This document shows, piece by piece, positions 10,648-15,612 of a stretch of 64,000 nt of DNA. This DNA comes from Escherichia coli (GTDB taxonomy: Bacteria; Pseudomonadota; Gammaproteobacteria; Enterobacterales; Enterobacteriaceae), in assembly GCF_051903065.1 (NCBI RefSeq), contig NZ_CP178438.1; one strand, given 5' to 3'. The notes beneath the pieces were generated by a model that saw only the letters and a list, made by a program, of their open reading frames with translations, was not told the DNA's origin and did not search any database. The position numbers and the translations under genes are program-made. The stretch's first letter is position 1; every line of letters begins with the position of its first letter.

Positions 10648-10701
10648 GTTGGAGTCATTACCAAAAGCCAGTCAGACAGCGCAGTTGTTCGTATAAAAGA
10701 T

Positions 10702-13014
10702 GTGGCTCGCGTTGAGATGGGCAGTGAAGATTATACCGCTATCGGCAAACTTAACGGTCACCCGTCTGCCGGGGTTGCTGTAATGCTTTCGCCCGGTGCG
10801 AATGCGCTGAATACGGCGACGCTGGTCAAGGATAAGATTGCCGAATTCCAGCGGAACATGCCGCAGGGATACGACATCGCTTACCCGAAAGACAGCACTG
10901 AATTTATTAAAATCTCTGTAGAGGACGTAATTCAGACGCTGTTTGAAGCCATCGTATTGGTGGTTTGCGTGATGTATTTATTCCTGCAAAACCTGCGTGC
11001 CACACTGATTCCGGCGTTAGCTGTCCCCGTCGTTTTGCTGGGCACATTCGGCGTTCTTGCGTTGTTTGGCTATTCGATTAATACCCTGACGTTGTTTGCA
11101 ATGGTGCTGGCGATCGGCTTGCTGGTGGACGATGCCATTGTGGTAGTGGAGAACGTCGAACGCATTATGCGTGACGAAGGGTTGCCCGCGCGTGAAGCCA
11201 CGGAAAAATCAATGGGCGAGATTTCTGGCGCACTGGTTGCCATTGCGCTGGTGTTGTCAGCCGTATTCCTGCCTATGGCCTTCTTTGGGGGATCTACGGG
11301 GGTAATTTATCGTCAGTTTTCGATAACCATTATCTCCGCAATGCTGCTTTCCGTGGTGGTGGCATTGACCTTGACTCCCGCCCTGTGCGGTTCCGTCCTC
11401 CAGCATGTTCCGCCACATAAAAAAGGCTTTTTCGGCGCATTTAACCGCTTTTACCGCCGTACTGAAGATAAATATCAGCGAGGCGTAATTTATGTCCTGC
11501 GCCGTGCTGCTCGAACGATGGGGCTTTATCTCGTACTGGGTGGTGGAATGGCCCTGATGATGTGGAAACTGCCGGGCAGTTTCTTACCCACTGAAGACCA
11601 GGGCGAAATCATGGTGCAGTACACGCTGCCGGCCGGGGCGACCGCTGCCCGTACAGCAGAAGTGAATCGCCAGATTGTTGACTGGTTCCTGATTAACGAG
11701 AAAGCAAATACCGATGTCATTTTTACCGTTGATGGTTTCAGTTTTAGCGGCAGCGGACAGAACACCGGGATGGCGTTTGTTTCGTTGAAAAACTGGTCTC
11801 AACGTAAAGGGGCAGAAAACACCGCCCAGGCTATCGCCCTACGGGCAACCAAAGAGCTGGGCACAATTCGTGATGCCACGGTATTTGCGATGACGCCGCC
11901 AGCCGTTGATGGGCTGGGGCAAAGCAATGGTTTTACGTTTGAATTGTTAGCTAACGGTGGAACCGATCGCGAAACACTACTGCAAATGCGTAATCAGTTG
12001 ATAGAAAAAGCGAATCAAAGTCCGGAGTTACATTCTGTTCGTGCCAATGATTTGCCACAAATGCCGCAATTGCAGGTAGATATTGATAGTAATAAAGCGG
12101 TGTCATTAGGGTTGAGTTTGAATGATGTCACCGACACCCTGTCCAGTGCGTGGGGCGGTACTTATGTGAATGACTTTATTGACCGTGGTCGTGTGAAAAA
12201 AGTCTACATTCAGGGCGACAGTGAATTTCGTTCCGCGCCGTCAGACTTAGGTAAATGGTTTGTGCGCGGTAGTGATAACGCCATGACACCATTCTCTGCT
12301 TTTGCGACCACCCGCTGGCTGTATGGACCGGAAAGACTGGTGCGCTACAACGGTTCTGCAGCCTATGAAATTCAGGGGGAAAATGCGACTGGCTTTAGTT
12401 CCGGCGATGCAATGACAAAAATGGAGGAACTGGCAAACAGTCTTCCTGCGGGAACAACCTGGGCCTGGAGTGGTTTGTCATTGCAGGAGAAACTGGCCAG
12501 CGGTCAGGCATTGAGTCTGTATGCAGTTTCTATTCTGGTGGTTTTCCTCTGCCTTGCAGCACTGTACGAAAGCTGGTCAGTCCCGTTCTCGGTCATTCTG
12601 GTGATCCCTCTGGGGCTTCTTGGCGCGGCGCTGGCGGCCTGGATGCGTGATTTAAACAACGATGTTTACTTCCAGGTGGCGCTATTAACCACTATCGGCT
12701 TGTCGTCGAAAAACGCCATTCTGATTGTGGAATTTGCTGAAGCGGCGGTTGCAGAGGGTTATTCCTTGAGTCGTGCGGCATTACGCGCGGCGCAGACTCG
12801 TTTACGCCCAATCATCATGACCTCGCTGGCGTTTATTGCGGGGGTAATGCCGCTGGCGATAGCAACCGGCGCAGGGGCGAACAGCCGCATCGCCATTGGT
12901 ACGGGCATTATTGGCGGTACGCTGACCGCTACGTTGCTGGCTATTTTCTTTGTTCCTCTGTTTTTTGTACTGGTGAAACGTTTGTTTGCCGGTAAATCGC
13001 GCCGTCAGGAGTAA
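10702..13014 (+). pseudogene. RND (HAE1/AcrB-family) multidrug efflux permease, 5'-truncated by IS1; about 270 N-terminal codons missing
   Basis: 770-codon ORF aligns to AcrB-like residues from about 270 to the C-terminus; reading frame runs back into the IS1 right end with no plausible native start (GTG at 10702); no membrane-fusion-protein gene upstream. Confidence 0.8.
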
Positions 13015-13017
13015 GTT

Positions 13018-14391
13018 ATGTTGCGTCGTTCTCTTATTTTTCTGGTGCTGTTGAGTGCGGGATGTGTCTCGCTCGATCCCCACTACAGCACGCCTGAATC
13101 CCCAATCCCGGCGACCTTGCCGGGAGCACAGGGCCAGGGAAAGGCAATCAGCCATGACTGGCAGCAGGTGATCCACGATCCCCGATTGCAGCAGGTGGTG
13201 ACTATTGCACTGAACAGTAACCGCGATGTGCAAAAAGCGATTGCTGATATTGACTCAGCACGGGCGCTCTATGGGCAAACTAATGCGTCGTTATTCCCGA
13301 CGGTGAATGCGGCCTTAAGTTCAACCCGCAGTCGTTCGCTGGCGAATGGTACGGAAACCACTGCCGAGGCTGACGGCACGGTGTCCAGTTTTACGTTAGA
13401 TCTGTTTGGTCGTAATCAGAGTTTATCTCGGGCGGCGCGAGAAACCTGGCTTGCCAGTGAATTTACAGCCCAGAACACCCGTTTAACGCTGATTGCTGAA
13501 ATCAGCACCGCCTGGCTGACACTGGCGGCCGATAACAGCAACCTGGCCCTGGCAAAAGAAACGATGACCAGTGCAGAAAACTCATTGAAAATTATCCAGC
13601 GCCAGCAACAGGTTGGCACGGCGGCAGCGACAGATGTCAGTGAGGCGATGAGTGTTTATCAGCAAGCGCGCGCCAGCGTTGCCAGCTATCAGACACAAGT
13701 GATGCAGGATAAAAATGCGCTGAACTTACTGGCAGGTACAACGCTTGAGGAAAATTTGCTACCGGGAACACTGGAAAGCCTGCCGGAACAGATGATAAGT
13801 CTGGTTCCTGCGGGAGTGTCATCTGACGTTCTGCTGCGTCGCCCGGATATCCAGGAAGCGGAACATAATTTGAAGAGCGCCAATGCCGATATTGGCGCGG
13901 CGCGGGCTAACTTTTTCCCGACGATTTCGCTGACTGCCAGCGCTGGTGTTGGCAGTGACGCATTGTCGTCGTTGTTCAGCCACGGAATGCAGATCTGGTC
14001 ATTTACGCCATCGGTCACATTACCGCTGTTCACTGGCGGAAGTAATCTGGCGCAGCTTCGTTACGCAGAAGCACAAAAGCGTGGACTCATTGCCACCTAT
14101 GAAAAAACCGTTCAGAGCGCATTTAAAGATGTCGCTAACGCACTGGCGCGGCGGACCACGCTTGAAGAGCAACTGGATGCACAGCGCCAGTATGTTAAAG
14201 CTGAGCAACAAACGGTCGATGTTGGCTTGCGTCGCTATCAGACGGGTGTTGGTGATTACCTGACCGTGTTGACGGCGCAGCGCAGCTTGTGGAGCGCACA
14301 GCAGGAGCTGCTGGCACTGCAACTGACTGATTTTACAAACCGAATCACGCTCTGGCAGTCGCTGGGCGGCGGCATGTCATCACTCAAGTAA
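13018..14391 (+). CDS. Efflux outer-membrane factor lipoprotein (OprM/NodT family)
   Basis: 457-aa ORF with lipobox (LLSAGC); start 4 bp after the RND stop; family call from overall length and repeat-like composition. Confidence 0.7.
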   Translation: MLRRSLIFLVLLSAGCVSLDPHYSTPESPIPATLPGAQGQGKAISHDWQQVIHDPRLQQVVTIALNSNRDVQKAIADIDSARALYGQTNASLFPTVNAALSSTRSRSLANGTETTAEADGTVSSFTLDLFGRNQSLSRAARETWLASEFTAQNTRLTLIAEISTAWLTLAADNSNLALAKETMTSAENSLKIIQRQQQVGTAAATDVSEAMSVYQQARASVASYQTQVMQDKNALNLLAGTTLEENLLPGTLESLPEQMISLVPAGVSSDVLLRRPDIQEAEHNLKSANADIGAARANFFPTISLTASAGVGSDALSSLFSHGMQIWSFTPSVTLPLFTGGSNLAQLRYAEAQKRGLIATYEKTVQSAFKDVANALARRTTLEEQLDAQRQYVKAEQQTVDVGLRRYQTGVGDYLTVLTAQRSLWSAQQELLALQLTDFTNRITLWQSLGGGMSSLK

Positions 14392-15563: not shown

Positions 15564-15568
15564 TGAAT

Positions 15569-15604
15569 ACCTCATCCTGAGGGGGGCCCCTGTCAGGATG
15601 AGGT
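15569..15604. terminator. Perfect 12-bp inverted repeat (acctcatcctga / tcaggatgaggt) around a G6C4 loop, between convergent MFS gene and sapF
   Basis: Read directly; lies between the MFS stop (15563) and sapF stop (15613). Confidence 0.55.
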
Positions 15605-15612
15605 GCAGAACA

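Follow-up and report, generated by a model that had tools for sequence, protein, structure and literature searches.

An IS1-associated deletion at the eefRABCD efflux locus in a clone of Escherichia coli

The fabI-sapF interval and its efflux genes

We analyzed a 64,000-nucleotide stretch of Escherichia coli DNA (contig NZ_CP178438.1 of NCBI RefSeq assembly GCF_051903065.1), here called the window, in which the remainder of the efflux operon eefRABCD lies directly behind an IS1 insertion sequence (IS). Direct reading and the open reading frame (ORF) listing gave the order rnb, yciW, and fabI on the minus strand, a 380-bp AT-rich spacer, the IS1 element, three genes on the plus strand, and then sapF and sapDCBA, again on the minus strand. 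The three plus-strand genes belong to a resistance-nodulation-division (RND) permease, an outer-membrane factor (OMF), and a major facilitator superfamily (MFS) pump, and they run opposite to the two flanking core genes, fabI (8726..9514, minus) and sapF (15613..16419, minus). The flanks were identified from the ORF listing and from annotation, which in the case of fabI is that of near-identical records. In the window, the fabI-sapF interval contains neither an adaptor gene nor a regulator gene. An initial annotation, made from the letters of the window, had given coordinates, orientations, and frame arithmetic for the three efflux genes and IS1, all of which proved correct.

On sequence comparison, the locus is the chromosomal eefRABCD operon, which is already known and named (PMC12817139). 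It has been described as a seventh RND system of E. coli, invariably in the fabI-sapF interval (Pugh et al., Microb Genom 2026, PMC12817139; bioRxiv 2024), and it encodes a regulator of the TetR type, a periplasmic adaptor, a permease of the RND type, an OMF, and an MFS pump (PMC12817139). Phylogroups B2, D, E, F, and G carry the operon, and A, B1, and C, which lack it, have ycjD instead; the operon is highly conserved and, in E. coli, reported to be always complete, and two or three independent losses have been inferred in the species (PMC12817139). Cloned eefABC exports ethidium and leaves antibiotic MICs (minimum inhibitory concentrations) unchanged, and deletion of eefD in strain ATCC 25922 slows ethidium efflux (PMC12817139). 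In sequence type (ST) 73 the operon is identical or nearly so to that of the reference strain ATCC 25922 (PMC12817139). The window shares with ATCC 25922 and ST73 the fabI-sapF site, the orientation, and the order of the surviving genes. However, where those strains have five genes, in the window eefR, eefA, and codons 1 to 252 of eefB are replaced by IS1. Compared with CFT073 (ST73), nucleotide identity is 98.3% for the eefB remnant, 97.6% for eefC, and 98.2% for eefD, and the products are identical at 780 of 783, 449 of 457, and 382 of 387 residues, respectively.

E. coli K-12 carries ycjD at the fabI-sapF site. When the K-12 DNA that includes ycjD (L004, 2689-3321) was searched with blastn against the eef-type locus, it found no match, and a residue of ycjD there was rejected. 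Two proposals of the initial annotation were upheld, namely, that no ycjD-like ORF is seen in 9535..9894 and that an accessory efflux locus, partly deleted by IS1, occupies the ycjD site of K-12; genome comparison also found the intact ancestral locus, in strain ECNB21-M121. What had been missed is that the locus is the published eefRABCD, for which a comparable lesion is described in Shigella dysenteriae (PMC12817139).

The first of the surviving genes, 'eefB (10663..13014, plus), is a pseudogene consisting of the 3' 783 codons (253 to 1035) of the RND permease gene, and RefSeq records it as a pseudogene missing its N terminus. Native permease sequence begins at 10663 with codon 253 of the 1035-amino-acid (aa) protein. 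The initial annotation had recognized the N-terminal truncation and put it at about 270 codons; the truncation stands, and the number is corrected to 252, or to 265 when counting from the first possible start codon, GTG 10702. Against the HAE-1 model TIGR00915 (NCBIfam), the product scores 1144.4 bits (cutoff, 940.35) and aligns only over profile positions 252 to 1039 of 1050, which places it, as had been proposed, in the C-terminal part of RND permeases. It lacks the TM1 (first transmembrane segment) and the N-terminal porter and docking subdomains that mark a full-length HAE-1 protein, the full-length homologue having 1035 aa. The first in-frame starts, GTG 10702 and ATG 10717, lack a convincing Shine-Dalgarno (SD) sequence.

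The ORF from 10702 to 13014 starts 18 codons (54 nt) past the stop codon of the IS1 gene insB (10645-10647) and is in the same frame (10702 - 10144 = 558 = 186 x 3). An InsB-'EefB fusion protein was considered and rejected. The common frame, which has a one-in-three expectation by chance, is without consequence because the TAA codon at 10645-10647 intervenes.

The other two genes are intact. The OMF lipoprotein gene eefC (13018..14391, plus) encodes a 457-aa protein of the NodT/OprM family that scores 371.3 bits against TIGR01845 (cutoff, 210.05; profile positions 3 to 460 of 460). Its N terminus, MLRRSLIFLVLLSAGC, is a lipoprotein-type signal peptide with a lipobox, read by eye, of LLSAGC and the cysteine at position 16. 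The ATG has an SD-like GGAG 7 nt ahead of it, and the protein accession, WP_000946219.1, is the same as that of the intact locus. The gene eefD (14400..15563, plus) encodes a 387-aa Bcr/CflA-type MFS exporter, with 277.7 bits against TIGR00710 (cutoff, 200.9; profile positions 5 to 380 of 385) and 313 bits against the TcaB equivalog model, which is below that model's cutoff of 475. It is preceded by an SD-like AAGGA and likewise has the accession of the intact locus (WP_047624272.1).

The operon as a whole resembles MexAB-OprM and AcrAB-TolC. The alignment of full-length EefB with AcrB and MexB runs from end to end, EefA of the intact locus has its top scores with the MexA and AcrA models of NCBIfam, and EefC is a lipoprotein of the NodT/OprM type. 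Those systems are tripartite, whereas the window lacks one of the three components and has another only in truncated form. In further contrast, even the intact Eef pump leaves antibiotic MICs unchanged (PMC12817139).

Extent and origin of the deletion

A megablast search of positions 9400 to 15700 against 5426 complete E. coli genomes returned ECNB21-M121 (locus sequence L002) as the best intact relative. Its locus encodes a TetR/AcrR regulator, a periplasmic adaptor, a 1035-aa RND permease, an OMF, and an MFS pump. It aligns with the window in two collinear blocks, one extending to 9894 with a single 1-bp indel and the other being 100% identical from 10663 to at least 16000. The indel is at window position 9544, in the fabI-eef intergenic region, where the window has TTGTTTGCC and both ECNB21-M121 and strain 23CRST027 have TTGTTGTGCC. 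The surviving eef sequence shows no substitution relative to ECNB21-M121, and 'eefB equals L002 6185-8536 at 100% identity. On the left, the retained fabI-eefR intergenic DNA (9515..9894; GC content, 0.42) is collinear with L002 to position 3496 and ends at the IS1 junction, 9894/9895. IS1 thus stands in place of exactly 2688 bp, L002 3497-6184.

Lost with these 2688 bp were a candidate promoter of eefR, eefR itself, the DNA between eefR and eefA with its palindromes, the whole of eefA, and eefB codons 1 to 252. The palindromes are located directly 5' of eefA. The candidate promoter is the best plus-strand promoter-like site 5' of eefR (TTTCCA-16-TATAAT, L002 3513-3540, matching at 10 of 12 positions), and it begins 16 bp inside the deletion. 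The absence of adaptor and regulator genes, which the initial annotation had pointed out, is accounted for by this segment.

The element at 9895..10662 (plus) has the features that define IS1: a length of 768 bp (about 768 bp expected), imperfect terminal inverted repeats (GGTGATGCTGCCAACTTACTGAT and GGTAATGACTCCAACTTATTGAT; about 23 bp expected), the frames insA (9950-10225) and insB' (insB, 10144-10647), and an A6C frameshift motif at about 10202-10208. It is intact and IS1A-like, its transposase is co-directional with the eef genes, and RefSeq annotates this copy as IS1A family with a programmed frameshift. A target-site duplication, of the 8 to 9 bp expected of a simple insertion, is absent at 9895-10662: the left flank reads ...ATGCACCATG and ends in ...GCACCATG, and the right flank begins AAAAGCCAG... 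A repeat search of 9400 to 15700 found only chance matches and the internal half-repeat of the RND gene; at the ends of IS1 it found no direct repeats.

A second IS1, located at 1276-2043 on the minus strand in the osmB/yciT interval, is 100% identical to the eef-locus copy, from which it is 8 kb distant, and in inverted orientation. It is bounded on both sides by an 8-bp duplication, CTGCAAAT, and is missing from ECNB21-M121. The two copies bracket yciT through fabI. Inversion between them was considered and ruled out, the intervening gene order being that of K-12, ECNB21-M121, and CFT073 and the osmB/yciT copy having a duplication of its own. IS1 upstream of osmB has been reported in ST131, where it lowers osmB transcript levels (PMC8764528).

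An IS1 without direct repeats is regarded as the footprint of intramolecular target-primed (replicative) transposition or of recombination between two IS copies (review PMC9330008, citing Turlan & Chandler 1995). The eef locus has in common with the IS1 adjacent deletions described there that the deletion edge lies exactly at the IS1 end, that the element is intact, and that direct repeats are absent. It differs in that the mechanism is read from the footprint, and the same footprint is left by recombination of two direct IS1 copies. The missing target-site duplication, set against the duplication at the identical copy at 1276-2043, fits either an adjacent deletion or recombination of two IS1 copies. 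As far as its sequence goes, the lesion is an IS1-associated deletion at the eef locus, and the 2688 bp would have been removed either in one step, by intramolecular transposition of IS1 (adjacent deletion), or by homologous recombination of two IS1 insertions in direct orientation.

Downstream of the operon, the gap between the convergent eefD and sapF is 49 bp and contains a 36-nt palindrome (15569..15604) with 18-nt arms that are 89% complementary and 0 nt between the arms. A terminator-like match on the minus strand (15582-15570) overlaps it, and the palindrome is probably a bidirectional terminator. No structured RNA above the Rfam gathering thresholds was matched in the whole window. Farther away, ycjN (35578-36870, plus), which encodes an ABC-transporter substrate-binding protein of the ycjM-V sugar cluster, has an in-frame TGA at about codon 137 and is annotated as a pseudogene in the 23CRST027 RefSeq record. 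Between ompG and ycjW there is an IS3-family element at about 46646-47994 (plus; coordinates transferred from annotation), which is IS1397 in a near-identical RefSeq record.

Distribution of the lesion among E. coli genomes

A 200-nt probe for the right junction was fully covered in 2 of the 5426 complete genomes, those of 23CRST027 and 23CRST031. These strains are from human feces in Ecuador, belong to one clone, and have the same IS1-containing arrangement by megablast. About 2000 genomes match all of 9400 to 15700 except IS1 and have extra DNA in its place. The deleted 2688-bp segment was found in 2041 genomes and eefCD in 2043, and the difference of two equals the number of junction-positive strains. 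The deleted segment therefore appears not to be located elsewhere in 23CRST027 and 23CRST031. As a separate observation, 2 of about 2040 eef DNA matches are on records labeled plasmids.

A few substitutions and indels distinguish the window from either RefSeq assembly of the clone, and the three slightly different sequences have the same junction. IS1 copies are partly annotated as frameshifted in both of these assemblies and are intact in the window, which suggests residual indel errors in the two assemblies. The deletion is recent and confined to one clone. IS1 occupies 36 places in the two junction strains, compared with a median of 10 in IS1-containing genomes, and the lineage bearing the junction is thus IS1 rich. 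The nearest eef sequences, 99.8 to 99.9% identical, are from O157:H7 and O145:H28 strains. The clone is probably in phylogroup E because these serotypes are phylogroup E serotypes.

Other IS lesions were seen in the operon. In AVS0968, an independent IS1 (93% identical; L003 3282-4049) replaces eefR only and leaves eefABCD without a regulator. In IAI39, an IS629 interrupted by a group II intron is located between eefA and eefB (L008, about 7980-11470), and in AVS0543, ISEc23 splits eefD (L009, about 6650-9180). Altogether, large IS lesions affect about 5 of the 2043 eef-positive complete genomes. This number is in agreement with the strong conservation published for the operon, and the statement that it is always complete has rare exceptions.

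In S. dysenteriae, an insertion sequence that takes the place of eefR and most of eefA is the norm, which the authors read as ongoing degradation (PMC12817139). By the description in that paper, the two lesions are alike in that an IS-linked event took the operon's 5' end, regulator and adaptor included, and left the downstream genes. The end point, however, is inside eefA in S. dysenteriae (where eefB is kept, as is about 25% of eefA) and inside eefB in the window.

Expression and function of the surviving genes

In the architecture known from AcrB, EefB codons 1 to 252 correspond to TM1 and PN1, a part of PN2, and the greater part of the docking domain. The 'EefB remnant would be unable to give a correctly inserted trimeric transporter. 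Judged from the structures of AcrB and MexB, the EefABC tripartite pump should be inactivated, a loss of function: it is predicted not to assemble because the adaptor gene is absent and the permease is without these regions. For eefC and eefD the question is one of transcription, as the two genes are undamaged and retain their ribosome-binding sites and the candidate native promoter and the regulator gene are lost.

Activation of genes by IS1 fusion promoters was reportedly described by Prentki et al. in 1986. The terminal repeat of IS1 contains an outward -35 box, which yields a fusion promoter only when the flank offers a -10 box at a suitable distance (PMC8764528, PMC9330008); formation of such promoters by IS1 and activation of acrEF are on record (PMC9330008, PMC8764528). 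The initial annotation had suggested that the OMF and MFS genes could be expressed from an outward or hybrid promoter of this kind. The right end has the outward -35 box TTGGAG at 10649-10654, but the hexamers 16, 17, and 18 nt past it, GTCAGA, TCAGAC, and CAGACA, match TATAAT at only 1 or 2 of 6 positions, and none has both A2 and T6. We scanned for promoters at a standard and at a relaxed threshold. The standard scan found no plus-strand site of at least 9/12 from 9930 to 14954, and the relaxed scan found no internal promoter of at least 8/12 directly 5' of eefC. An 8/12 site at 14374-14401 was considered for eefD and rejected, since it overlaps the eefD start codon. With no correctly spaced -10 box and nothing usable at either threshold, a hybrid or outward promoter at the right end was rejected as unsupported by the sequence. 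The case is like that of acrEF activation in Salmonella and E. coli in that IS1 is immediately 5' of efflux genes and its terminal repeat contains an outward -35 box; it differs in having no usable -10 box on the eef side and a truncated pseudogene as the adjoining downstream gene.

The nearest plus-strand promoter-like site to the eef genes is the IS1 insA promoter region at 9902-9929, from which read-through into eefC and eefD is possible. The promoter of insA is a weak one that InsA represses, and IS1 exerts polarity on genes downstream of it. Transcription of eefC and eefD would then be limited to weak read-through from this autorepressed, co-directional promoter or to cryptic internal promoters, and a transcript from IS1 would have to cross 2.35 kb of poorly translated 'eefB, with added Rho-dependent polarity. 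Strong expression of eefCD is unlikely. If a transcript does pass, EefD could act alone as an inner-membrane exporter, and EefC would be without its cognate partner.

At the left end of IS1, pointing toward fabI on the minus strand (9908-9880), TTGGCA in the left terminal inverted repeat is followed after a 17-nt spacer by TATTCT in the flank, a 9/12 match. This fusion site is located about 360 nt 5' of the fabI start codon (ATG), and a 10/12 promoter-like site at 9629-9601, which may be the native fabI promoter, is downstream of it. The region has 8 promoter-like sites against a shuffled expectation of 5.9, which is not above expectation, and the fabI-ward fusion site is only a lead.

We consider it highly probable that eefRABCD was partly destroyed in one clone by an IS1-associated deletion and that the pump was lost with it. 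We infer that neutral gene decay in an IS1-expanded lineage is the simplest account. Several points weigh against this interpretation. Adjacent deletion and recombination between two IS1 copies are indistinguishable from the sequence. The absence of the deleted 5' part elsewhere in the two genomes rests on the difference between 2043 and 2041. A simple promoter scan can miss real promoters. The transcriptional silence of eefC and eefD is a prediction. Finally, eefC and eefD show no decay at all, which a recent event would lead one to expect but which would fit continued use just as well.

The lesion could instead be an adaptive rewiring, in which loss of the EefR repressor together with transcription from IS1 made eefC and eefD constitutive and gave the clone an OMF plus MFS export function; in essence, the initial annotation had proposed this. 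It would fit that IS1 is co-directional with the eef genes, that the insA site is their nearest plus-strand promoter, that both genes are intact with their SD sequences, and that fusion promoters and acrEF activation are documented for IS1 (PMC9330008, PMC8764528); the slower ethidium efflux after eefD deletion in ATCC 25922 also indicates that EefD is active on its own (PMC12817139). However, the right-end hybrid promoter fails, the plus strand is free of standard-threshold sites from 9930 to 14954, and the 2.35-kb 'eefB remnant with its poor start contexts separates IS1 from eefC. It further counts against rewiring that the one promoter at hand is weak and autorepressed in a polar element, that the allele occurs in one clone only, and that we know of no function for an OMF without an adaptor. 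We regard this explanation as unlikely.

It is improbable that loss of the Eef pump was itself selected, for example, because the pump or its handling of substrate is costly in the niche of the clone. Parallels would be the losses seen in phylogroups A, B1, and C, those in ST69 and ST182, and that in S. dysenteriae, and the idea could draw on the two or three independent eef losses, on the IS that replaces eefR and eefA in S. dysenteriae (PMC12817139), and on the other IS lesions in the operon, in AVS0968, IAI39, and AVS0543. Inactivation is rare, however, at about 5 of 2043 eef-positive complete genomes, a neutral hit is simpler in a clone so rich in IS1, and a phenotype of eefABC deletion beyond dye handling is not known (PMC12817139). 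That the IS1 event was a selected rewiring in either direction, through regulator-free expression of EefC and EefD from IS1 or through a left-end fusion promoter acting toward fabI, is quite improbable. An assembly artifact, with reads collapsed or misjoined at a repeated IS1 and the operon really intact, is extremely improbable: repeats are the usual cause of misassembly, there are about 36 IS1 copies per genome, and the two RefSeq assemblies have indel errors, including IS1 copies annotated as frameshifted, but the window, 23CRST027, and 23CRST031 are slightly different and yet have the same junction to the base, the ends of IS1 are precise on both sides, both RefSeq records stand in the collection as complete genomes, and the deleted segment is seemingly absent from both (2041 versus 2043).

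The destruction of eefRABCD in this clone is an ordinary IS1 deletion of the textbook kind in a system already known, and it is a small departure from the published claim that the operon is complete in every case. The gene fabI is essential and is the target of triclosan. If the left-end fusion promoter is real, it could alter fabI expression in a human-associated clone. The clone itself is a natural eefRAB-null, eefCD-intact strain, and with ECNB21-M121 as a near-isogenic intact comparator it offers a pair for seeking the physiological substrate of the Eef pump.

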